A stretch of 64,000 bases of DNA from Patescibacteria group bacterium (GTDB taxonomy: Bacteria > Patescibacteriota > Minisyncoccia > Phycocordibacterales > CAIZLB01): the NCBI GenBank assembly GCA_040386515.1, contig JAZKFG010000002.1, forward strand, positions 79,074 through 143,073. Reading direction: 5' to 3'. Below the pieces are notes generated by a model, which had not been told where the DNA came from, did not search any database, and was given only the letters and a program-made list of their open reading frames with translations. Below, piece by piece: positions 19,297 to 64,000 of this stretch. The position numbers were made by a program, and so were the translations under genes. Positions within the stretch are counted from its first letter, which is position 1; each line of letters opens with the position of its first letter.

Positions 19297-20772
19297 ATGC
19301 TCCAATCAACCGCCCTCGACATACTCAAAACCGGCGCATCAGTTTTCCTTACCGGAGAACCTGGTTCAGGAAAAAGTTATACCATACGTCAGTATGTGGA
19401 TTTTTTGGCTGCAAATCATGTGTATGCATCGGTTACTGCTAGTACAGGTATTGCTGCTACGCATATTGGAGGAATGACTATTCACTCATGGGGAGGTATT
19501 GGCATTAAAGAATCTTTAAGTGTGTATGACATTGAAGCGCTTCATGAAAAGGAATATATTGTGAAGCGAATGCTTAAAGCTAAGGTTTTAATTATTGATG
19601 AGATTTCAATGTTGAGTGGAAATACATTTGATATGATTAATGCAGTTTGTAAAAGCGTTCGGCAAGTGCCTGACAAGCCATTCGGAGGATTGCAGGTAAT
19701 ATGTGTAGGAGACTTTTTTCAGCTTCCGCCTATTATTAAAAAAAATACAAACAGCCTTGAGCTCTTTGAAGATAATGGTTTTGTATTTTCTAGTTCTGCC
19801 TGGAGAGAGCTTAAACCATTGACATGCTACTTGACAGAACAGCATAGACAAAGCGATGCAGAGTTTATGAAAGCGCTTGCACAAATAAGAAACAATACCG
19901 TTGATGAAGAAACGCATAGTATTTTGCGCACCAGAGTTGTACGAGAGAAAACTGATTTGCCTGATGCTACAAAATTATATTCACACAACTCGCATGTTGA
20001 TACGGTAAATACACGAGAGATTGGCAAGCTTGATGGTAAAATAAAGATCTATGAAATGACTACTAAAGGGAAGGACACAATGACTGCAACACTTATTAAA
20101 AGCTGTTTGTCACCTGAAAAGCTTGAACTTAAAATCGGAGCTAAAGTTATGTTTACTAAAAACAATCCTGATAAAGGTTTTGTAAATGGTACGACAGGAA
20201 CTATTGTTGAATTCCATTTTGATATGCCGCGAGTTAAAGTGGCAAATGGCATGACTATAGATGTTGAGCCAATGGATTGGAGTATTATGGATCAAGGAAG
20301 GGTGTTGGCATCAATTACTCAAATTCCACTTCGGCTGGCATGGGCAATTACTATTCACAAAAGCCAAGGCATGAGTTTGGACGCGGCTATTATGGATCTT
20401 TCACAAGTGTTTGAATATGGGCAAGGTTATGTTGCGCTTTCACGTGTTCGGACACTGCAGGGATTGCATGTCATAGGATATAACGATAGAGCTCTTGAAG
20501 TTCACCCGCGAGTACAGGAAGAAGATCAGCTATTTAAAGAACAATCACAGGAAGCTGAGTTACGCATTTTCCAAATGGATAAAGGGGAGCTTAAAAGAAT
20601 TCAAGAAAGATATATTGGCTCTATTGCCGGAGCTCCTAAAAAAGAAGAAAAAGAGCCTAAGAAAACATCAGGATTCAAGGCTCGGGGTGGATGGAAAACT
20701 AAAAAGAAAAAGGAGGTAAATCTTGATGATGTGTATAAAGTTGAATATGAAGGGGATGGAGATGTTTGGTAA
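19297..20772 (+). CDS. RecD/PIF1-like superfamily 1 DNA helicase with a Lys-rich C-terminal tail
   Basis: Walker A LTGEPGSGKSY, Walker B VLIIDEISM, and the QLPPI and AITIHKSQGMSLD motifs of RecD/TraA/PIF1 helicases. Confidence 0.7.
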   Translation: MLQSTALDILKTGASVFLTGEPGSGKSYTIRQYVDFLAANHVYASVTASTGIAATHIGGMTIHSWGGIGIKESLSVYDIEALHEKEYIVKRMLKAKVLIIDEISMLSGNTFDMINAVCKSVRQVPDKPFGGLQVICVGDFFQLPPIIKKNTNSLELFEDNGFVFSSSAWRELKPLTCYLTEQHRQSDAEFMKALAQIRNNTVDEETHSILRTRVVREKTDLPDATKLYSHNSHVDTVNTREIGKLDGKIKIYEMTTKGKDTMTATLIKSCLSPEKLELKIGAKVMFTKNNPDKGFVNGTTGTIVEFHFDMPRVKVANGMTIDVEPMDWSIMDQGRVLASITQIPLRLAWAITIHKSQGMSLDAAIMDLSQVFEYGQGYVALSRVRTLQGLHVIGYNDRALEVHPRVQEEDQLFKEQSQEAELRIFQMDKGELKRIQERYIGSIAGAPKKEEKEPKKTSGFKARGGWKTKKKKEVNLDDVYKVEYEGDGDVW

Positions 20773-20817
20773 TTACTATGGACTTTTATTATAAAAAATA
20801 TTTGATATACTATATAT

Positions 20818-21117
20818 ATGACAGATCTAGAATTTAACGATAGCAATAACTTAATGCGAGGTTTTAAATCTCGAGCAATACTTGGTCAGCCGGAGACTCC
20901 AGGCATGATTAACTTTTTAATACGAAAAGGTATTGTTAAAAGTCAAAATCAAGCCTATTACATTCTTGTCGGAATAATGATTTTCTGTTTCGGTCTCGCA
21001 ATTGCACTCCCATTTATGTTTGGAACGGGGGGAACAACTATTTCTGCAGAGCAACAGAAAGCAATGGAAACTATGCAAACACAGGGTAATAATACACCAG
21101 CACCAGTACAGCAGTAA
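20818..21117 (+). CDS. Small membrane protein, member of a 3-paralog family in this window (see 62252 and 63074)
   Basis: Shares F(K/R)SR(A/V)ILG(Q/E)P..P.M...I.(R/K).G(I/V)VK(S/N) followed by one TM helix with ORFs 62252..62509 and 63074..63346. Confidence 0.5.
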   Translation: MTDLEFNDSNNLMRGFKSRAILGQPETPGMINFLIRKGIVKSQNQAYYILVGIMIFCFGLAIALPFMFGTGGTTISAEQQKAMETMQTQGNNTPAPVQQ

Positions 21118-25838: not shown

Positions 25839-26615
25839 TTATTTCATCAAACTACTCTCCATTGCATATAAATCATGCACACCTGAGGCTGTTAAATCCT
25901 TTCCAAAAATACGAACATTATCAATATATCCAGTATATCCCCATTCATCAGCTGACCCTCCTGAAACAGTCTTTTTCATACCAATTATTAATGGCTGTGT
26001 TGATGTAATGGGTGCAGTGCCGCCTGTTCCTGATGAAAAAATCTTACCATCAAGATATGTTTTACTTACTGTCCCGTCAAATACTCGAGCAACATGATGC
26101 CAAACTCCAACTGTTGGAGTGAAGGATCCTGTAAATGTTATCCCATACGAAACGTCGTAGGCAACATCCTGACTTTTATTAATTGCAACATTGTATGTCT
26201 TATCCCATGCCTCTGATTTAAACCAAAATGAAATCGAATACTTACTTCCTAAGTCTAAGAAGTTTGAATCAGGAACTCGTACATAATCATTTACACCATC
26301 AAATCGTATAGAATATCCTGTCCCGTCTGGAGTATCAGTTGACCAACCGTATGGAGAGGCAATATTTGTTAGTGTTCCCGTATTGTTATTACCTGATAAA
26401 TCTCTGGTTGTTAATCCTGTTCCTTCATTAAAATCCCACATTGCTAAAGCTTGATCTCCTGCAACATGATACATGTTTGCTTCAAATTGCAATCCAGCCG
26501 CAACTCGACTTTTTTCTCTGGCTGCACTTAAAGACACTAAAGCTATACTAGCCAAAAGACTAATTATTGAAATAACTACAAGGAGTTCTATAAGTGTAAA
26601 TCCTTTCCGACGCAT
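25839..26615 (-). CDS. Type IV pilin-like protein with a C-terminal LamG/concanavalin-like lectin domain
   Basis: Prepilin leader MRRKG|FTLIELLVVISIISLL (G-F cleavage site with Glu at +5); LamG_3-like blocks WHHVARVFDG..TYLDGK and GYIDNVRIF. Confidence 0.7.
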   Translation of the reverse strand: MRRKGFTLIELLVVISIISLLASIALVSLSAAREKSRVAAGLQFEANMYHVAGDQALAMWDFNEGTGLTTRDLSGNNNTGTLTNIASPYGWSTDTPDGTGYSIRFDGVNDYVRVPDSNFLDLGSKYSISFWFKSEAWDKTYNVAINKSQDVAYDVSYGITFTGSFTPTVGVWHHVARVFDGTVSKTYLDGKIFSSGTGGTAPITSTQPLIIGMKKTVSGGSADEWGYTGYIDNVRIFGKDLTASGVHDLYAMESSLMK

Positions 26616-37256: not shown

Positions 37257-39770
37257 ATGAAGAAGAGATCTCTACTTATCATTTTAATTTCGGCCCTTAC
37301 TGTATTTTTTTCAAGTGCAAGCATTTTCGCTGCAGCTCCAAGTAAAGCTTTAGGATTTCAAGGTCAGTTGTTTAGCAATGGCACACCGCTCAGCAGTAGT
37401 GTAAACGCAACATTTACATTTTACAACTCTTTAAGTGGTGGCTCTACAACTGGCTCTCCAATCTCAAAAACAATTACAGTTGCTAACGGATATTTCGGTA
37501 CTCAATTCACAGAAGCAGACACTACAGGAGTAAACTTTGATCAGGATTTATATATTCAGGTAAACATCAACGGAACTGATTTGTCTCCACGAACAGCAAT
37601 CAACGCTGCACCAACTGCATTAAAAGCCTTTGGAACATTTTCATATGCAAGTGCACCAACTGTAGGTCCTGTGGGAAGTCTTTACTTCAATACTGTTGAC
37701 GGCAAATTATATACATCAAATGGAACAGCATGGTCATCAGCATCATCTGTATGGTCTACAAATGGAACATTTGCATATTACAATGCTGGAAGTGTTGGAA
37801 TTGGAACAACTACTGCTGCAAGTTCAACAACTGCACTAACCATTGATTTAGGTTTAAACCAGACACAAGGAATTCATATTACAGGTACAAAAGATAAATT
37901 TATTTTCCTTGAAAGACTCGGTTCAGGGGGAAGGGGTTTAGTAATTGGGCAACAAAATGGAGGACAGATGTATGGAGGAAATGCATCAGTTATTCGTTCT
38001 GCAGGAACTTTAGATGAAGTGATTGAAATTTCTCCTGGAAGAGATCTGTCTTTGAACAAAGGTTCTGTTCAGATTGCTCCTTTTGGAGGACTTGTATCGA
38101 TCGGTAATGCTTCACCTGCGTATAAACTCGATATTGCAAGTTCTTCTTCTGCAAATGCTGTAGACATGCTTAGATTCCAAAACACTGCAAATGCAGCTGC
38201 AAATACTGGAGCAAGCATATTATTTACAGCAAATAGAAGTGGGGAAACTGCAACAGATGTAGCACGATTGTCTGGAGCAATTACAGATATTACTGCAGGT
38301 GCATATAAAGGTGCTTTAATTTTCTCTACTGCAAATAATGCGGCTCCAGCTGAAAGAATGCGACTTGATAGTAACGGATTCTTAGGTATTGGTACAACTG
38401 CACCAACTGCACGTTTTGATATTAACGATGGAGGAATTGGTATGATCATTGGTGCCGATAACAATGGAAACCAAACTCGAACAAACAATACAACAAAGGT
38501 TGGACGAATTGCTTCTCCTCACTATACAAACAATGAAGAACCAATGGCTATGATTTTCAGTAGTTCTGGAACGTCAACAAGTATAGTGTCATTCGGAGGT
38601 GGTTCTGCAGTTATGAATGCTGCAACAGAAATTAGATTCTTTACTGCGGCAGATACTATAACTACTGGTGGAACTTCACGAATGGTAATTGATACAAATG
38701 GAAATGTTGGTATTGGTACTACAACTCCGACAACAGGATCAAGACTTGATATCTGGGGGAATATGCAGGTAGGAACATCGTCGCTCCCAGCATTCTTTGT
38801 TGATTCGTCAACATCACGAATAGGTGTAGGAACAACTACACCAGGACGAACTCTTACTGTCGCAGGACTGGGAATGCAGATATATAGATCAGGAGGCGGT
38901 GTACCACATATTGAAATAATTCAAGGAGGAGCAGCAGCAGATTTAAGAAACTGGAGACTTAACGGAGAGATAGACGGATCATTTAACATATATCCAATGA
39001 CTGATGCTAACTCAAACTTAAGACCGCTTCGATATACGCATGATGGGCGACTGCAAATAACAAACTCAACTATGTCTAACGTCGATGCACGACTCTATGT
39101 AGATAGTAATAGTGTTGCATCTACCTCAGCTGTATTTATGAATGGATTTGTTGGTATTGGAACAACAACTCCAACTGCAAACTTAACTGCGTCAGGAACA
39201 ATTAGATTTTCTTCACTTGTAGGTGGTGGGGCAAACCTAGTGGTAGATTCACTTGGAAATGTAACAGTTTCTTCTGATGAGCGATTGAAGGATATAAAAG
39301 GAATGTTTACAACAGGTCTTGATAAAATCCTTGCACTTAATCCGATTTCATATAAATGGAAACCAGAAACTGGATATGATACTACTAACACATACGCAGG
39401 ATTTAGTGCACAAAATGTTCAATCTGCCATTCCAGAAGCAGTGGGAACTGACAACCGAGGATTCCTAACGCTTGCCGACAGACCAATACTAGCTGCACTT
39501 GTGAATGCTGTAAAAGAGCTTGCTGTAAAAATTGGAAATATGTCAAACAAAGTGCAGACAAAAGAACTTTGTCTTGATGATGTATGTATCACAAAAGATC
39601 AGTTGAGAACAATTTTGCAGCAGCAAAATAATATAAACATTAATACGATTAATGTTGTAACTCCACCGCCAACAACTTCTACAACAACTGTTGAAATTAC
39701 TCCTGCGCCAGCTCCAACACCAGAGCTTGTTGCGCCGGTTGAGCCAGCAACTCCTCCTGCAACTGAATAG
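37257..39770 (+). CDS. Secreted fibre-like protein: Gly/Thr/Ala-rich with repeated (V/L)GIGTT(T/A)P motifs and a C-terminal peptidase-S74-type intramolecular chaperone (autoproteolytic) domain, followed by a Pro/Thr tail
   Basis: Signal peptide MKKRSLLIILISALTVFFSSASIFAAAP. There are four or more MRLDSNGFLGIGTTAPTARFDI-type repeats. The C-terminal block is SSDERLKDIKG..LNPISYKWKPE..AGFSAQNVQSAIPEAV. Confidence 0.6.
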   Translation: MKKRSLLIILISALTVFFSSASIFAAAPSKALGFQGQLFSNGTPLSSSVNATFTFYNSLSGGSTTGSPISKTITVANGYFGTQFTEADTTGVNFDQDLYIQVNINGTDLSPRTAINAAPTALKAFGTFSYASAPTVGPVGSLYFNTVDGKLYTSNGTAWSSASSVWSTNGTFAYYNAGSVGIGTTTAASSTTALTIDLGLNQTQGIHITGTKDKFIFLERLGSGGRGLVIGQQNGGQMYGGNASVIRSAGTLDEVIEISPGRDLSLNKGSVQIAPFGGLVSIGNASPAYKLDIASSSSANAVDMLRFQNTANAAANTGASILFTANRSGETATDVARLSGAITDITAGAYKGALIFSTANNAAPAERMRLDSNGFLGIGTTAPTARFDINDGGIGMIIGADNNGNQTRTNNTTKVGRIASPHYTNNEEPMAMIFSSSGTSTSIVSFGGGSAVMNAATEIRFFTAADTITTGGTSRMVIDTNGNVGIGTTTPTTGSRLDIWGNMQVGTSSLPAFFVDSSTSRIGVGTTTPGRTLTVAGLGMQIYRSGGGVPHIEIIQGGAAADLRNWRLNGEIDGSFNIYPMTDANSNLRPLRYTHDGRLQITNSTMSNVDARLYVDSNSVASTSAVFMNGFVGIGTTTPTANLTASGTIRFSSLVGGGANLVVDSLGNVTVSSDERLKDIKGMFTTGLDKILALNPISYKWKPETGYDTTNTYAGFSAQNVQSAIPEAVGTDNRGFLTLADRPILAALVNAVKELAVKIGNMSNKVQTKELCLDDVCITKDQLRTILQQQNNININTINVVTPPPTTSTTTVEITPAPAPTPELVAPVEPATPPATE

Positions 39771-39797
39771 ATTCTTATTACGTGGTAATATTATTAT

Positions 39798-40646
39798 ATG
39801 AGTTTCCATTCATTTCCGCGTCTCAATAATAAAAAAGGATTTACACTTATTGAACTCCTTGTAGTTATTTCTATTATTTCACTACTTTCATCAATTGTAT
39901 TCACTTCATTATCGAGTGCACGAGTTAGAGCTGCAAAAGTTGCAGGAATGGAATTTGCCTCACGAATGGATAGAACTATTGGATTGAACACTGCAGTGGA
40001 TATTGATTTTGATGAGGGAACTGGAACAAAAGTTGTAAATAAATCAGATGGAAACCAAGCAACCGCAGTAGGCGGTCCTACATGGTCAACTGATACGCCA
40101 ACAGGAATTGGCTATTCAATGGCATTTTCAGGTACTCAAAACATAAATGTATATGCAACAGGTGATGGAATGAATGCAACTAATGATGGAAGGGCTTTTA
40201 CATATGCCGCATGGTATGAACCAAGAGTAGTGAATCCGGCAACAGGGATTTATATATTAAACAGATCAGGATATCACTCAGGAATAACGCACTCAGCATC
40301 TGGAAGACTTGGCTGTACACAGTGGTTTACCGATATAACAAACATCAATATACAATATACAACGAACGTCGATGCGGGAAGATGGTATCATGTTGCGTGC
40401 ACAGTCGACAGTCTTAAAAAAACTATTACATTATATGTTAACGGTAATGCTGTTAATAAAGCAACATACACGACAGGTAAGATTTTATATGATTATTCAG
40501 CAGTTCCATATACAATAGGAGCATTTAGTTCTACGTATGCAGCAGATGGAAATATTGACCAAGTACGAGTATTTACACAATCTCTCGTTGCTCAACAAGT
40601 TAAGGATTTATACGATGCTACAAAGGCACAATTTGCCCTAAAGTAG
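39798..40646 (+). CDS. Type IV pilin-like protein with a C-terminal LamG/lectin-like domain (paralog of 25839..26615)
   Basis: KG|FTLIELLVVISIISLL prepilin motif; RWYHVACTVD..LYVNGN and GNIDQVRVF LamG blocks. Confidence 0.65.
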   Translation: MSFHSFPRLNNKKGFTLIELLVVISIISLLSSIVFTSLSSARVRAAKVAGMEFASRMDRTIGLNTAVDIDFDEGTGTKVVNKSDGNQATAVGGPTWSTDTPTGIGYSMAFSGTQNINVYATGDGMNATNDGRAFTYAAWYEPRVVNPATGIYILNRSGYHSGITHSASGRLGCTQWFTDITNINIQYTTNVDAGRWYHVACTVDSLKKTITLYVNGNAVNKATYTTGKILYDYSAVPYTIGAFSSTYAADGNIDQVRVFTQSLVAQQVKDLYDATKAQFALK

Positions 40647-47781: not shown

Positions 47782-48588
47782 TTAGATAACGTTTGAATAA
47801 TCTTTTTCATCGTATATATATCGAAGTCCGAATCCAATATCAAATGACTGGTATCCAAGTTCTGCATAGTGTTTTGCCAAGATCTTGCTTGTCGGTCCTG
47901 TTGAAATTGCAAGCACGACTTTTTTGTCGGCAAGGTTTGAAAGGACGTTGTCAACAGTTGCTATTATATTATGAAGTTTGTCGAAAGAATTTTCCTTTGG
48001 CGTGTCAACGTAGGTTGCTGAGGCAAAGGGTATGGTCGTTTTACGTATCTCTGCATTCGCATCCTCATTCGTTACGAATACCACATGCTTGTCCTGTAAA
48101 AATTCGTTAAAAAACCGGAGCATGAGGTTTCTATAATAAAAGAAGTGCGCATCCGCGTACGCGGCGTCTTTGTTGAACATCTTTCTAAATTCAACCTTAA
48201 GGGGGAGCCAACAAGAAAGCTTGCCGTCTGTCTTCGAAAGTTCCTGATTAGTGTAATTTACAAAAACTGGGATGCTTAGGATATAGGGTGACTCAAGAGT
48301 GTATTCCTTAATAATTTTCCGAAGACCAAGCTCAAGCTCCTTTTCGTGCGGCTGGTAGTGAATGTCTCGACCGTGAAGTAGGCCTATTTCTCCATCCCCG
48401 ATACGGATGATTGATTTGCCTTTTGCTATTTGATCAAAAAGCTCGTGCTCGGAATAAAAGCGCGCGGAATTAGGGTAGGTTTTTTGGGGATAAGCCATTG
48501 CATAGGCGAGTACAAAAGAAGGATACCGTAAAAGGTAGTTTTTGAAAAAATTAACGATTCTCTTAAGGAATGCGATTTTAGAATCCAT
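47782..48588 (-). CDS. DUF1792-like (GT-D type) putative glycosyltransferase, paralog 1
   Basis: Conserved IIRIGDGEIGLLHGRDIHYQ block (DxE-like metal motif); paralog of 51930..52724. Confidence 0.4.
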   Translation of the reverse strand: MDSKIAFLKRIVNFFKNYLLRYPSFVLAYAMAYPQKTYPNSARFYSEHELFDQIAKGKSIIRIGDGEIGLLHGRDIHYQPHEKELELGLRKIIKEYTLESPYILSIPVFVNYTNQELSKTDGKLSCWLPLKVEFRKMFNKDAAYADAHFFYYRNLMLRFFNEFLQDKHVVFVTNEDANAEIRKTTIPFASATYVDTPKENSFDKLHNIIATVDNVLSNLADKKVVLAISTGPTSKILAKHYAELGYQSFDIGFGLRYIYDEKDYSNVI

Positions 48589-59875: not shown

Positions 59876-59962
59876 TCTTACCACTATTCCACTTGCAAAA
59901 CACGCAATGTCCCAAAAAGACAGAGCGTGTTTTGCTTTTGGATATATGGTATATATATACCT

Positions 59963-62239
59963 ATGAATTTACTTAATATATTCGGATCACCGATAAAGAA
60001 ATATCAGAAAATAGCCCTAGAAATCAACGATCTTGAGAAAAACCTTACAGATCTTAGTGATGAGGCGCTTAAAGAGAAGTCGTTAGAGCTCAAGGGTAAG
60101 CTTGCCAATGCAAGTAAAGAATTGCTCGCAGAGAATTTACCTATGGCGTTTGCTCTTGTTCGTGAGTCTGCTAAAAGAACACTTAATCAGCGACACTATG
60201 ATGTGCAGCTTGTTGGAGGTATGATTTTGCATGATGGAAATGTAGCAGAAATGAAAACAGGAGAAGGAAAGACACAGATGGCAACTCTCCCTACATATCT
60301 TAACGCTCTGACAGGTCTTGGTGTGCATGTGGTTACAGTGAACGATTATCTTTCGCGGCGAGATGCAGCATGGATGGGACAGATTTATTATGCACTTGGA
60401 TTAACAACTTCAGTTATTACTCAGGATCAAGCATATATGTATGATCCAACTCACGTGAGTGCGGAAACAGAAAAGACAGAAGATGAACTTGGAAGCTTTA
60501 AAGTTGGATATGAATTTTTGCGTCCTTGTACAAAGCGAGAAGCATATGAAGCAGACATAACATATGGAACTAACAGTGCATTTGGATTCGATTATCTATT
60601 TGATAACATCAGTGCTCATAAAAACGACCTGCGACAGAGACTTCCTAACTATGCAATTATCGACGAAGCTGACTCTATTCTTATTGACGAGGCACGTACA
60701 CCTCTTATTGTCTCTCAACCTGCAGCAGAATCAGATGAAATGTATAAGACATTTGCAAAACTAGTTAGAGGAATGAAAAGAGATGAGCATTATACAGTTG
60801 ATGAAAAATTTAGAAATACATTTATTACAGATGAAGGTATTACATTTGCAGAAAAAAGCTTAAATGTATCAGATATGTATTCTCCAGAGCATATTCAGCT
60901 TGTACATCACTTGGAGACTGCTATTAAGGCACTTGCACTCTATCAGAAAGAAGTTGACTACATTATTAAGGATAATGAAGTTATTATCGTTGATGTTTCA
61001 ACTGGACGAATTCAACCAGGACGACGATGGTCAGAAGGAATTCATCAGGCAATTGAAGCAAAGGAAGGTGTGAAAATTCAGCGAGAAAGTAAAACAGCTG
61101 CGTCTATTACATATCAAAACTTCTTTAGACTATATCCAAAGCTTGCAGGTATGACAGGAACAGGACTTACAAGTAGAGAAGAGTTTGTGAAAGTGTATGG
61201 GCTGGACGTACTTGAAGTTCCAACTCATAAGCCTATTGCACGAAAGGATTTACATGATCTTATATATATGACAGAGCTTGGCAAATTTAAAGCCATAGCA
61301 AAGAAAATTAAAGAGCTGAGTGCAAAAGGTCAGCCTGTACTTGTTGGTACAGTTTCTATTGAAAAAAATGAATTGCTTTCAAAGTATTTGAAAATTGCAG
61401 GTGTTCAGCATACACTTTTGAACGCTAAGCCTGAGTTTGCAGAGAAAGAGGGAACAACTGTTGCACAAGCTGGAAAAAAAGGTGCTGTAACTATTGCTAC
61501 AAACATGGCAGGACGAGGAGTTGATATTAAGCTTGGAGGTATTCCATCAACTCAAGAAGAGGCAGATGAGATTCGGTCTCTTGGTGGCTTGTACGTGATT
61601 GGTACAGAGCGTCACGAAGCACGACGAATCGATAATCAGCTTAGAGGGCGATCAGGACGACAGGGAGATCCTGGAGAGACTCAGTTCTATGTATCGCTTG
61701 AAGATAATCTTATGAGAATATTTGCCAACAGTGCCGTTAAAGGACTTATGGCGCGAATGAATCTCCCTGAAGATGAAGCTATTCAGCATCCAATGGTGTC
61801 TCGAGCACTCGAATCCGCACAAAAGAAAATTGAAGGTTTTCATTTTGATAGTCGAAAACAAGTTCTAGAATACGACGATGTACTTAATCAGCAACGACAG
61901 GGAATATATAGACGACGAAGAGCTGTTCTTGTTGCAGAAGGTGAAGAATTAAAAACAATTATAGATGAAATATTAACTCGAAAAGGTTTTGTGCCGAAAG
62001 AAGGTTATGTGCAAGATGAGACATTTTATAGAACTGCACAAACTCTCTGGCTACAAATTGTAGACTATTTCTGGATGAATCATTTGGATGCTATGGATCA
62101 TTTAAGGCAGAGTGTAGGGCTACGAGGAATTGGACAGCGAGATCCTCTGGTTGAATATAAGAGAGAGGGACTTGTTATGTTTAAGGATCTTGAGCAGAAA
62201 GTTGAGAATGAATTTGTTACTGCCCTCGGAAGAATATAG
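59963..62239 (+). CDS. secA: Preprotein translocase ATPase SecA (short form without the C-terminal zinc-binding tail)
   Basis: MKTGEGKT Walker A, DEADSILIDEARTPLI, the IRA/helical wing, GRSGRQGDPG. The start is taken at MNLLNIF rather than the upstream Met of the ORF track. Confidence 0.9.
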   Translation: MNLLNIFGSPIKKYQKIALEINDLEKNLTDLSDEALKEKSLELKGKLANASKELLAENLPMAFALVRESAKRTLNQRHYDVQLVGGMILHDGNVAEMKTGEGKTQMATLPTYLNALTGLGVHVVTVNDYLSRRDAAWMGQIYYALGLTTSVITQDQAYMYDPTHVSAETEKTEDELGSFKVGYEFLRPCTKREAYEADITYGTNSAFGFDYLFDNISAHKNDLRQRLPNYAIIDEADSILIDEARTPLIVSQPAAESDEMYKTFAKLVRGMKRDEHYTVDEKFRNTFITDEGITFAEKSLNVSDMYSPEHIQLVHHLETAIKALALYQKEVDYIIKDNEVIIVDVSTGRIQPGRRWSEGIHQAIEAKEGVKIQRESKTAASITYQNFFRLYPKLAGMTGTGLTSREEFVKVYGLDVLEVPTHKPIARKDLHDLIYMTELGKFKAIAKKIKELSAKGQPVLVGTVSIEKNELLSKYLKIAGVQHTLLNAKPEFAEKEGTTVAQAGKKGAVTIATNMAGRGVDIKLGGIPSTQEEADEIRSLGGLYVIGTERHEARRIDNQLRGRSGRQGDPGETQFYVSLEDNLMRIFANSAVKGLMARMNLPEDEAIQHPMVSRALESAQKKIEGFHFDSRKQVLEYDDVLNQQRQGIYRRRRAVLVAEGEELKTIIDEILTRKGFVPKEGYVQDETFYRTAQTLWLQIVDYFWMNHLDAMDHLRQSVGLRGIGQRDPLVEYKREGLVMFKDLEQKVENEFVTALGRI

Positions 62240-62251
62240 TATACTATATGC

Positions 62252-62509
62252 ATGTCAGAACTAGAGTTAGGAACGTCAAATACCCTTCCAAATCAATTTA
62301 GATCTCGAGTAATTTTAGGTGAATTAAAACATCCTAAGATGCTGGATTTGATTTTGAAAACAGGAATTGTAAAAAATGAAGCAGGAGCCGTAAGGGTCTT
62401 GCTTTTTGGTGCTTTACTTATATTTGCTGCATCAGTTTTTGTTTTTGTATATGCATTTTCAAGCCCTGATTCAGCTACTCCAGAAGAATTATCTAAGCTT
62501 CCTTTTTAA
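62252..62509 (+). CDS. Small membrane protein, pilin-associated family (paralog 2)
   Basis: MSELELGTSNTLPNQFRSRVILGE..GIVKNE followed by a TM helix; immediately upstream of a pilin gene. Confidence 0.5.
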   Translation: MSELELGTSNTLPNQFRSRVILGELKHPKMLDLILKTGIVKNEAGAVRVLLFGALLIFAASVFVFVYAFSSPDSATPEELSKLPF

Positions 62510-62520
62510 AAATAACATAT

Positions 62521-63027
62521 ATGAAATTCAATTCATCGCATAATAAAGGATTTACGCTCATAGAACTTCTTGTTGTGGTTGCTATCATAAGTTTGTTAAG
62601 TTCTATTGTTCTTGCCAGCTTAAAATCAGCAAAGGATAGAGCTGATGTTGCTAAAATCGTAACGGAAGCAAGACAGTTCAAGCAAGCGATGGAAACATAT
62701 AGAGCAAATAACAATTCATATCCGCCAATAACTTCTTCAGCCACATATCTGTATGATTTAAACGATGCTTCTTATCCTGGGGGAACTGTATTCAGAAATG
62801 CTTTATTGCCGTACATAGATATTAATAAAATATCTTTCTTGAAAAAACCAGGTTCTTTCATTCTTCAAGAGTATTATAATGGAGCCACATGTGCAGGGCA
62901 GAATCCTCCTCCAGGTGGGTATATGATTATATTTGCTGAGCCAAAATTGACTACGCAATTTAAAAAATGGCAGTATTCAGACGGAACTCTTGATACAGAT
63001 GGTAGATTTTGTTTTGTAAATGAATAA
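62521..63027 (+). CDS. Type IV pilin / pseudopilin (prepilin-type N-terminal methylation domain)
   Basis: MKFNSSHNKG|FTLIELLVVVAIISLLSSIVLASL with Glu at +5; C-terminal Cys pair (TCAG...RFCF). Confidence 0.75.
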   Translation: MKFNSSHNKGFTLIELLVVVAIISLLSSIVLASLKSAKDRADVAKIVTEARQFKQAMETYRANNNSYPPITSSATYLYDLNDASYPGGTVFRNALLPYIDINKISFLKKPGSFILQEYYNGATCAGQNPPPGGYMIIFAEPKLTTQFKKWQYSDGTLDTDGRFCFVNE

Positions 63028-63073
63028 ACTGCTTGTTGTTGGTCTCTAGGTGCTGGTGTAGTATAATTTAAGC

Positions 63074-63346
63074 ATGTCAGAACTAGAGTTAGGAACATCA
63101 AATACACTCCCAAATCAATTTAGATCTCGAGTAATTTTAGGAGAACCTAAGTCACCAAAAATTCTTGAAATTATTTTAAAAACTGGTGTTGTTAAATCTG
63201 AAAAAGGAGCACTTGTGATTTTGTGTTTATTCGCTGTATTGGTGATTGGTGCCACATGTACAATTCTTGCAAAAACATATTCAACTGAAACACCTCCTAA
63301 GTTAGATCTAGAAGCACTTAAAAATAATCCTGTAATGCCTAAATAG
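63074..63346 (+). CDS. Small membrane protein, pilin-associated family (paralog 3)
   Basis: The first 24 aa are identical to 62252..62509 and the 5' DNA is nearly identical over about 70 nt; TM helix; precedes a pilin gene. Confidence 0.5.
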   Translation: MSELELGTSNTLPNQFRSRVILGEPKSPKILEIILKTGVVKSEKGALVILCLFAVLVIGATCTILAKTYSTETPPKLDLEALKNNPVMPK

Positions 63347-63347
63347 T

Positions 63348-63836
63348 ATGTCTAAGAAAAAACATTACAAAAAAGGATTTACACTCATAGAGCTTCTGGT
63401 AGTGGTAGCAATTATTGGATTGTTGAGTTCTATCGTTTTGGCAAGTCTAAAAACTGCAAAAGATAAGGCCACTGCTTCAAAAATTGTACAAGAAACTCAG
63501 CAATATAAACGAGCTATGGAAACATTTAGAACTAATAACGGGTTCTATCCTGGTCCTCAGGCTGTAGGTGTATATGCCATAATGCCTGATGCTGCAATTG
63601 CTGCTGCTTTAGCACCATACATAGATATCAATAAAATGTTGATATTTAAAACAGAGTCATATCAATTATCGCCTTTATATGTGCCAAATGTGTATACATG
63701 CGCGGGTGTTAATGCTCCTGATGGAGGATATATGATATTGATAACAAACCCTGTACTTAAAAATGAGCTCAAGCAATGGTATGCAAATGGCACAGTATAC
63801 AGTAACGGTGAGAGATTTTGTTTTATTAATGATTAA
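63348..63836 (+). CDS. Type IV pilin / pseudopilin
   Basis: MSKKKHYKKG|FTLIELLVVVAIIGLLSSIVLASL; C-terminal YTCAG...RFCFIND. Confidence 0.75.
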   Translation: MSKKKHYKKGFTLIELLVVVAIIGLLSSIVLASLKTAKDKATASKIVQETQQYKRAMETFRTNNGFYPGPQAVGVYAIMPDAAIAAALAPYIDINKMLIFKTESYQLSPLYVPNVYTCAGVNAPDGGYMILITNPVLKNELKQWYANGTVYSNGERFCFIND

Positions 63837-63846
63837 TACTCTTATA

Positions 63847-64000
63847 TGACTTTACGAACATCTTACAATAAAGGATTTACACTCATAGAACTTCTGGTTG
63901 TGATTTCTATTATCAGTCTTTTAAGTTCAATAGTGTTGGCCAGCCTTCAATCTGCTAAAAACAGAGCACAAGCAACAAAAGTTGTCTCAGAGGTTAGACA
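63847..64000 (+). CDS. Type IV pilin-like protein, 3' truncated by the window end
   Basis: MTLRTSYNKG|FTLIELLVVISIISLLSSIVLASLQSAKNRAQATK. Confidence 0.6.

Follow-up and report, generated by a model that had tools for sequence, protein, structure and literature searches.

A 64,000-nucleotide stretch of DNA from a Patescibacteria group bacterium (NCBI GenBank assembly GCA_040386515.1, contig JAZKFG010000002.1, positions 79,074 to 143,073 of the forward strand; the whole stretch is referred to here as the window) carries at its 3′ end two consecutive cassettes, each composed of a gene for a small membrane protein and a gene for a type IV prepilin. The small proteins belong to a real and previously undescribed protein family, members of which are encoded directly in front of prepilin genes in many unrelated genomic contexts. 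Because the pair survives much rearrangement across classes of the superphylum, there is strong comparative evidence, drawn from gene order and sequence, that the family is functionally linked to major-type pilins. The reading that we favour, and hold with moderate confidence, is that the small protein is a Patescibacteria-specific pilin accessory factor that would be co-expressed with major-type pilins and would act at the cytoplasmic face of the membrane.

The cassettes and their paralogs

The tandem small-protein and prepilin units that a first-pass annotation of this DNA had placed at the 3′ end of the window are borne out by the coordinates of the open reading frames (ORFs). The cassettes, the other family members of the same genome and the upstream neighbour are as follows (a slash in a prepilin leader marks the predicted cleavage point).

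62240..62245, + strand: TATACT, a −10-like hexamer that ends 6 nt upstream of the small gene 1 start codon (ATG); seen on direct reading of the DNA
62252..62509, + strand: small membrane protein copy 1, 85 amino acids (aa); family hidden Markov model (HMM) E=2e-27; N-terminal domain (N-domain) residues 1-47, transmembrane (TM) helix ~48-70, short outer tail
62521..63027, + strand: type IV prepilin 1, 168 aa, leader MKFNSSHNKG/FTLIE; PF07963 and TIGR02532; starts 11 nt past the stop of small gene 1
63062..63067, + strand: TATAAT, a −10-like hexamer that ends 6 nt upstream of the small gene 2 start codon (ATG)
63074..63346, + strand: small membrane protein copy 2, 90 aa (P0001, NCBI V4576_00765); family HMM E=2e-24
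63348..63836, + strand: type IV prepilin 2, 162 aa, leader MSKKKHYKKG/FTLIE; PF07963 and TIGR02532; starts 1 nt past the stop of small gene 2
63846..64000, + strand: type IV prepilin 3, 5′ part, leader MTLRTSYNKG/; 173 aa in full in contig L001; no small gene in front
L001 1024..1293: fourth small paralog, 89 aa (NCBI V4576_00780), just past the window end and behind prepilin 3
20806..20811, + strand: TATACT with TGA before it, an extended −10-like hexamer that ends 6 nt upstream of the stand-alone paralog's start codon (ATG)
20818..21117, + strand: stand-alone small paralog, 99 aa (P0002, V4576_00540); family HMM E=8e-31
59927..62239, + strand: secA, upstream neighbour of small gene 1

All of the DNA recovered downstream of the window is contained in L001, a 1.6-kb metagenome contig that overlaps the window end. 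The three small proteins encoded in the window share the motif that had been ascribed to them, with 18 invariant columns in their alignment, and each contains one hydrophobic segment, in keeping with the single TM helix proposed at first pass; in copy 1 the best 19-residue hydrophobic window starts at residue 49. The third pilin does run off the end of the window, its start lying at 63846 and not at 63847 as annotated. The two small-gene and pilin units form a tandem direct repeat with a spacing of 822-827 bp and a DNA identity of 66-72%. The first 72 nt of small genes 1 and 2 (62252..62323 and 63074..63145) are identical at 68 of 72 positions, all four differences being synonymous, against ~72% identity for the repeat taken as a whole; this may be due to gene conversion at the 5′ end, or to constraint acting on the nucleotides with which a leaderless mRNA would begin. 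Among the window paralogs the N-domains are 72-85% identical, and the TM helices and tails 24-42%.

A family of small membrane proteins in Patescibacteria

A search of 1.84 billion cluster representatives with the family HMM returned 542 representatives (clustered at 50% identity) at E<=1e-3 and 81 at E<=1e-10, and a word-indexed search returned just 10 close relatives. The Saccharibacteria-type subfamily by itself comprises 272 clusters at 90% identity. The small ORFs are thus conserved outside this genome, a point on which the first-pass annotation had let its proposal depend. Its third paralog is present where it was placed, at 20818..21117, and the three-member family that it described is enlarged by the fourth paralog in L001 and by the representatives found elsewhere. 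Where an organism is named, the members come from metagenome-assembled genomes (MAGs) of Patescibacteria, Parcubacteria, Taylorbacteria and Saccharibacteria, with the product label 'hypothetical protein', and judged from these sources the family appears to be confined almost only to Patescibacteria.

Two records call for separate comment. The listed members are 64-132 aa long with one spurious exception, P0011 (2667 aa), which was rejected as a fusion member: it is a eukaryote-like tandem repeat containing 'FLRSRFCLG', matched by chance over 13 stretches. It is the second-best HMM hit, its high score arising from many repeated weak matches, and is worth filtering from automated family builds. 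P0286 (L038/L039) is labelled 'Melioribacteraceae bacterium' at NCBI, and its contig carries a small-pilin island together with the HisKA and Big_13 neighbours of Saccharibacteria-type loci; because its gene content resembles those loci, this contig is probably mis-binned.

The conservation profile, built from 219 sequences that are non-redundant at 70% identity, reads M-S-[DEN]-[VIL]-[EQ]-F-[ED]-E ... [FIY]-[KR]-S-R-x-[ILV]-[LF]-G-x-P-x-T-P-x-M-[VI]-x-[FL]-L-x-K-x-G-[IVL]-[VA]-K-[NDST]-E-K-Q-A, followed directly by the TM helix. The most conserved positions are S17 (98%), P27 (96%), K40 (95%), A45 (95%), R18 (93%), G22 (92%) and F6 (91%), and G37 (89%) and E42 (84%) are also strongly conserved. 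Information content is highest in columns 1-49 and lowest in columns 65-95, with conservation collapsing past the TM helix. The window copies carry all of the nearly invariant residues and fall within the working definition of the family (the motif plus a single TM helix in 65-130 aa). In the Saccharibacteria-type subfamily (alignment A7: L009 3212..3517, L016, L021, P0045, P0172 and P0126) the extracellular tail has a conserved motif of its own, D..G..YT.EEYIELVK.G.DPL, which may form a small structured outer element and which the window copies do not have.

Exactly one TM segment is found in 294 of 295 sampled members. The mean number of lysine and arginine residues is 3.4 in the 15 residues before this segment and 1.4 after it, and because the count is higher before the segment than after it the N-terminus is predicted to be cytoplasmic. 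Columns 1-12 of the profile are acidic (net −2.9) and columns 13-47 basic (net +4.5). As predicted from these features, the small proteins would be bitopic and N-in, with a conserved cytoplasmic module of ~47 residues, one TM helix and a short, variable outer tail (median 36 aa, unconserved). AlphaFold2, run first with 11 sequences and then with 44, models helices at residues 29-37 and 43-70 of copy 1 in the run with 44 sequences, the second of which continues into the membrane.

With regard to known relatives, the first-pass annotation had not recognised the family, and it is likewise without a match in Pfam, NCBIfam, the sequences of the PDB and Foldseek. In Pfam the two cassette copies had no match and no entry recurred among 77 family members, and NCBIfam gave none for the small proteins of the window. 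A sequence search of the PDB reached E-values of 0.009 at best with the full-length profile and 0.33 with the N-domain profile, to unrelated proteins; a Tet4 variant, FliF, Flattop and the Sel1-repeat fragment 'KGVVKNEKQA' were set aside as chance-level matches. A Foldseek search of the PDB with the low-confidence AlphaFold2 model returned 0 matches. Readings of the motif by eye as MshEN/T2SSE_N-like, PilZ-like, clamp-binding or ribbon-helix-helix are supported by no search and are speculation. In the literature on the pili of Saccharibacteria and of the Candidate Phyla Radiation (CPR), and on CPR-enriched protein families, no description of the small-protein family was found.

Purifying selection on the small genes

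The ratio of nonsynonymous to synonymous substitution (dN/dS) was estimated by the method of Nei and Gojobori, the N-domain being represented by the N-terminal 46 codons. N-domain dN/dS is 0.1-0.25 in five comparisons among paralogs and orthologs; for small genes 1 and 2 of the window, dN is 0.14 and dS 0.67. The TM helix and tail are much less constrained, with dN/dS ranging from 0.4 to ~2 between paralogs. Between the orthologs L011 and L031, which come from two related populations, dN/dS is 0.11 over the whole length at a dS of 0.7. In the small-gene region Rfam has no match; its sole hit in the window is a tRNA at another place. The small ORFs are thus genuine and under purifying selection, and their resemblance goes beyond chance, as seen from the N-domain dN and dS of copies 1 and 2 and from the many HMM representatives elsewhere.

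Pairing with major-type prepilins

The genes downstream of the small genes in the window had been described as classical G/FTLIE prepilins, and all three window pilins pass the PF07963 and TIGR02532 cut-offs (35.5-37.9 bits against 21.2 and 16.3, respectively). A profile of the partner pilins (A9) finds Geobacter PilA-N (4.5e-16), Thermus PilA (4e-15), Neisseria PilE (6e-14) and GspG (3e-13) in the PDB. The partners belong to one class, 160-225 aa in length with short basic leaders, and their best PDB matches are mostly major pilins, plus the major pseudopilin GspG. By these matches the downstream genes are major-type type IV prepilins, for which peptidase cleavage, N-methylation and incorporation into the filament are predicted.

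Family loci were gathered from GTDB genomes, JGI metagenomes and exact-protein look-ups, and were scanned with the family HMM and the prepilin motif. The profile-based locus search supplied just 5 genome loci and 12 metagenome loci, so that gene context was counted over 32 members and not over hundreds. Of these 32 distinct evaluable members, 20 have a G[F]TLIE prepilin directly downstream on the same strand. Its start overlaps the small gene by at most 11 nt or follows the small-gene stop by at most 17 nt, the usual gap being 0-4 nt. The paired loci span at least 14 different flanking contexts, including secA (the window and L002), DUF4015 and uvrA (L004), a tRNA and rbfA-infB (L013/L014), Fur (L035), aspartyl-tRNA synthetase (L037), S-adenosylmethionine decarboxylase (L038) and a peptidoglycan-binding protein (L032). 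At Saccharibacteria-type loci the pair stands by itself as a two-gene island, with genes of the opposite strand on either side, and the unit is repeated in the Saccharibacteria MAGs L007 and L010, as it is in the window.

Co-occurrence with pilins in other genomes, which had been proposed as a comparative test, is therefore seen at most of the distinct loci and beside many unrelated flanks. The first-pass annotation had written of a consistent pairing with a dedicated partner; the pairing stands, and 'dedicated' proves too strong a word for a family in which ~40% of members are unlinked. Within the paired loci, similarity between small-protein N-domains tracks similarity between partner pilins (Mantel r=0.41, p=5e-4).

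Family members without an adjacent pilin

The remaining 12 of the 32 members are not next to a pilin. The stand-alone paralog of the window (20818..21117) lies behind a helicase-like ORF, with no pilin downstream and the next gene on the opposite strand. Elsewhere in the same genome, pilin 3 lacks a preceding small gene, and the fourth paralog is followed not by a pilin but by a 107-aa TM protein. In L007 (2104..2400) and L010 (2577..2867) a third family gene immediately follows the first pilin and does not have a pilin as its next downstream neighbour. Further unpaired members are located on a short 1.3-kb contig (L017), next to rpmE-prfA (L019) and in a gatA-like neighbourhood (L023), and a Taylorbacteria MAG has two tandem members, of 91 and 78 aa, between a divergent dnaE gene and the RNase HII gene and without a pilin (L028 3001..3543). 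The members in L011, L012 and L031, at the locus described below, complete the 12.

The 107-aa protein behind the fourth paralog, which is not a pilin, has an N-terminal coiled coil and one TM helix (L001 1024..1634 covers both genes). The same protein closes the secA-small-pilin locus of the related genome GCA_040384045.1 (L002 10815..11138).

One locus, arranged as tRNA-small-X-rbfA-infB, occurs in three states in closely related populations. X is a 208-aa pilin in L013/L014 (L014 2998..3925), a 133-aa pilin remnant without the N-terminal helix in L031 (3001..3709) and nothing in L011/L012 (L011 2898..3197), where rbfA-infB follows directly and convergently. This series shows rapid pilin turnover at a fixed site. 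Because the small gene is intact with the pilin full, truncated or absent, and remains under purifying selection in a copy whose pilin neighbour is gone, the function of the small protein is not strictly dependent on an adjacent pilin. Pilin loss may give rise to stand-alone copies, and such copies may work in trans.

Expression signals

In front of all three small genes of the window, a TATACT or TATAAT hexamer ends 6 nt before the ATG, and no Shine-Dalgarno-like sequence is present. Direct inspection, by which these boxes were found, also shows that at other loci most family members have a −10-like box 4-7 nt upstream of their ATG, and finds no such box in front of the paired pilins. A generic scan of 61900-64000 for sigma-70 promoters and terminators gave nothing above the shuffled expectation and did not call the box of small gene 1. 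Placement of a −10 box just before the ATG is what leaderless transcription predicts, and on this basis the transcripts are probably leaderless. TATACT at 62240..62245 is the probable promoter of a leaderless transcript of small gene 1 and pilin 1. More generally, the small gene would head the transcription unit, with the pilin translated by coupling or re-initiation, as the positions of the boxes and the spacing of the genes suggest.

Similar signals are found at other genes of the window. A strict box has the same placement before 5 of 48 other long ORFs, against a background of 1%, and a loose box before 14 of 48, against 11%. Examples of starts with a box ending 6-7 nt upstream and no Shine-Dalgarno-like sequence are those at 19297, 25839-26615 (− strand), 33240, 40684 and 47782-48588 (− strand). 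These observations suggest that leaderless transcription is widespread in this Patescibacterium.

Proposed function and alternatives

As a pilin accessory factor, the small protein would be encoded by the first gene of its own, probably leaderless, transcript, and with the prepilin gene −11 to +17 nt behind it the two proteins would be made together, probably by translational coupling. The small protein would then be tethered in the membrane beside the freshly inserted prepilin, with which it would share an N-in topology, and the conserved module on its cytoplasmic side would bind an invariant partner where the membrane faces the cytoplasm. This partner could be the basic prepilin leader, the junction of the leader with the N-terminal part of helix alpha1 (alpha1-N), the prepilin peptidase or the PilM/PilC/PilB platform, and in consequence major-type pilins would be more readily processed, stabilised or passed on to the assembly machine. 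The module would be expected to bind something constant, not the variable pilin head, because it is itself constant while the TM helix and tail run free. Duplication of the cassette as one unit, in the window and in L007 and L010, counts in favour of an accessory factor, as do the single class of partner pilins and the Mantel correlation, and TfpY/FimB offers a precedent for an accessory membrane protein that is encoded beside a pilin gene and needed for efficient assembly. We infer co-transcription and translational coupling of the two genes, any physical interaction of the small protein and the step of pilus biogenesis that it would affect; the chaperone, assembly-factor or anchor roles suggested at first pass are likewise putative.

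A more specific version of the scheme is put forward tentatively. Here the small protein would be a lineage-defining, stoichiometric pilin escort, whose acidic N-terminus and basic cytoplasmic motif would grip both the basic leader of the prepilin and the leader/alpha1-N junction at the inner membrane face and thereby control processing by the peptidase or delivery to PilC/PilM, with stand-alone paralogs serving unlinked pilins in trans. We know of no dedicated factor for this step in any characterised type IV pilus (T4P) system.

Several observations weigh against an accessory factor. The unlinked members are found in housekeeping neighbourhoods among others, and the small gene of the tRNA-small-X-rbfA locus is intact in all three of its states. 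No T4P machinery genes, and no pilD, lie beside the cassettes in the examined part of the window, and no likeness of structure or sequence to any T4P component emerged from the Pfam, PDB, Foldseek and hhalign comparisons. The Mantel signal could merely reflect shared species phylogeny. Co-evolution of the tail with the globular domain of the pilin was considered and rejected, there being no specific co-variation between TM helix plus tail and that domain once the N-domain is controlled for (partial correlation not significant); a single case is suggestive (s4 vs L004-small 51%, p3 vs L004-pilin 38%). Finally, AlphaFold2 gave no confident fold for the N-domain, with a predicted local distance difference test (pLDDT) score of about 55-60 for the N-domain and of 46-61 over the N-terminal 40 residues. 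A motif that needs a partner in order to fold would agree with this low confidence, which is not in itself evidence for such a motif.

The small protein could alternatively be a general membrane protein unrelated to pili, whose strong leaderless promoter and translating ribosome provide an expression platform behind which mobile pilin genes settle, using re-initiation in a genome with little Shine-Dalgarno usage. This would account for stand-alone members in housekeeping contexts, for the presence or absence of a pilin behind one and the same small gene and for N-domains that are equally conserved in pilin-linked and unlinked copies. It also agrees with −10 boxes that precede the small genes and not the paired pilins, with spacers that are tiny or overlapping and with the absence of visible Shine-Dalgarno-like sequences upstream of the window genes. 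It is nevertheless rather unlikely. Leaderless-type promoters are common at other window genes, as the strict box shows, and so offer pilins many equally good landing sites; yet most of the evaluable family members carry a pilin. Retention of the pair as an isolated unit in so many contexts is a classic signature of functional coupling, and one pilin class alone is found behind the small genes. The small protein could also regulate pilin supply: it would be a membrane-tethered sensor of the pilin pool, reading it through helix-helix contacts, and its module would sequester or release a cytoplasmic factor or bind nucleic acid. PilA-PilS feedback in Pseudomonas follows an analogous logic. The conserved part of the protein is cytoplasmic and basic, as the charge of columns 13-47 indicates, and a strand-like FKSRxIL followed by a helix, a glycine turn and a second helix makes a loosely ribbon-helix-helix-like pattern; the protein is encoded ahead of the pilin and stoichiometrically with it, and its stand-alone copies are compatible with action in trans. 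A regulator remains quite improbable in our estimate, being inferred from pattern alone: the N-domain profile matches no DNA-binding or other fold in the PDB and Pfam is silent, the second helix runs straight into the TM helix and leaves little room to reach DNA, and no regulator gene is consistently near the loci.

If the small protein were a degenerate or minimal pilin, the sequence KxG/[IV]VKxE would be cut by prepilin peptidase to give an Flp-like mini-pilin of ~45 aa, or would make a competitive pseudo-substrate that modulates PilD. G37 and E42 are indeed spaced like G−1 and E+5 of a prepilin and are followed by a hydrophobic helix, the topology is that of a prepilin, and in JGI one member bears the name 'Flp pilus assembly protein protease CpaA', which is weak evidence. 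Position +3 is, however, a nearly invariant lysine (K40), the hydrophobic run starts at about +10 after the glycine and not at +1, and conservation is strongest in the 'leader' and weakest in the 'mature' part, whereas in pilins it is the other way round. The N_methyl model PF07963 and TIGR02532 do not match the small proteins. Comparison with the partner pilins by hhalign gave a probability of 4.7%, and because this value comes from an overlap of TM helix on TM helix alone, the small protein is not regarded as a cryptic pilin; such a protein is very unlikely. An untranslated leader, an upstream ORF of which only the translation matters or an arrest peptide of the SecM/MifM type acting on the pilin would need no functional protein at all, and would suit an ORF directly and tightly upstream of a pilin gene and the 94% identity of the 5′ 72 nt of copies 1 and 2. 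Against this stands amino-acid conservation over >500 clusters in the face of synonymous divergence, with low N-domain dN/dS, as well as the conservation of stand-alone copies. Moreover, the C-terminal region, where an arrest motif would lie beyond the TM helix, is the least conserved, and Rfam is without a match, so that an ORF of this kind is extremely improbable.

Other features of the window

The secA ORF upstream of small gene 1 (59927..62239), as called mechanically, opens at GTG. The conserved N-terminus of SecA (MNLLNIFGSPIKKY) begins 12 codons further in, at ~59963, and likewise in L002, so that ~59963 is probably the true start. No small gene stands in front of the window's larger pilins at 25839..26615 and 39798..40646, the latter with a LamG domain. 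An 837-aa protein with a Peptidase_S74 domain (endosialidase intramolecular chaperone) is immediately followed by a 282-aa prepilin with a LamG/concanavalin-like domain (37257..40646), and the two could form an adhesin or tip-pilin module.

Implications

Type IV pili have been shown experimentally to underlie the episymbiotic lifestyle of Patescibacteria and are one of few such systems (TM7x; PMC11623550, PMC9894109), and in CPR bacteria few protein families are as strongly enriched as the pilins (PMC6744442). Through conserved gene pairing, a large orphan family of more than 500 clusters is now linked to a specific process. If the small protein is needed for piliation, it would represent a new, lineage-specific step of T4P biogenesis, would provide a handle on large and fast-evolving pilin repertoires and would be a missing helper for the pili that Patescibacteria use to attach to their hosts. 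If it is not required for piliation, the arrangement would still illustrate the part that leaderless promoters and coupled translation play in organising the pilin cassettes of CPR genomes. The hypothesis is cheap to test, given a two-gene operon, a sharp and short motif (near-invariant S17, R18, K40 and A45) and tractable Saccharibacteria, should a homologue be present in them.

Comparison with known systems

The small family shares individual features with several known groups of proteins. Upstream monitoring peptides such as those of SecM-secA, MifM-yidC2 and VemP-secDF2 act through a conserved C-terminal arrest sequence. Like them, the small gene is a short ORF with a membrane-targeting segment directly upstream of, and probably linked in translation to, a gene for an exported or membrane protein, but its conserved module precedes the TM helix and its C-terminus is the least conserved part. 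Adjacency of a small gene to secA is seen in two closely related genomes only. Type IV and Flp prepilins resemble the small proteins in being N-in, with a charged cytoplasmic N-terminal segment, a glycine with a glutamate five residues on and a hydrophobic helix; the small family differs from them in the spacing to the helix, the lysine at +3, the reversed pattern of conservation and the lack of profile similarity, all of which speak against homology or processing.

PilN and PilO are bitopic, N-in proteins of the assembly machinery. A short, conserved cytoplasmic N-terminal peptide of PilN docks onto PilM, and on the periplasmic side the two proteins have a coiled coil and a ferredoxin-like domain of ~100-150 aa; they are encoded in pilMNO machinery operons. 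The resemblance to PilN lies in a membrane-tethered, conserved cytoplasmic motif, and suggests how the module of the small proteins could work. The tail of the small family is, by contrast, short and unconserved, its genes lie beside pilins with no pilM adjacent at the examined loci, and Pfam PilN or PilO is absent among the matches listed for the 77 members searched.

The TfpY, TfpX and TfpZ (FimB-like) proteins of Pseudomonadota are pilin-adjacent membrane proteins whose biochemical function is unknown (Qaderi et al. 2025, PMC11841053). In Pseudomonas, pili are not assembled optimally unless TfpY is present, and TfpY appears to make contact with the pilin but not to become part of the filament (PMC11841053). 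TfpY-like proteins, 235-245 aa in length, combine three TM helices at the N-terminus with a beta-rich globular domain in the periplasm; their genes lie downstream of the pilin gene, and their conservation is found mainly in the TM helices (PMC11841053). Members of the small family, in contrast, have 65-130 aa, one TM helix, no globular outer domain and a conserved cytoplasmic N-domain, and are encoded upstream of the pilin; because the defining features of TfpY-like proteins are lacking, the small family is not counted among them, a distinction that is drawn from the published description of TfpY and not from direct sequence comparison. In both cases a membrane protein is encoded beside the major pilin gene and travels with it, and TfpY/FimB provides the best functional analogy for the small proteins described here.

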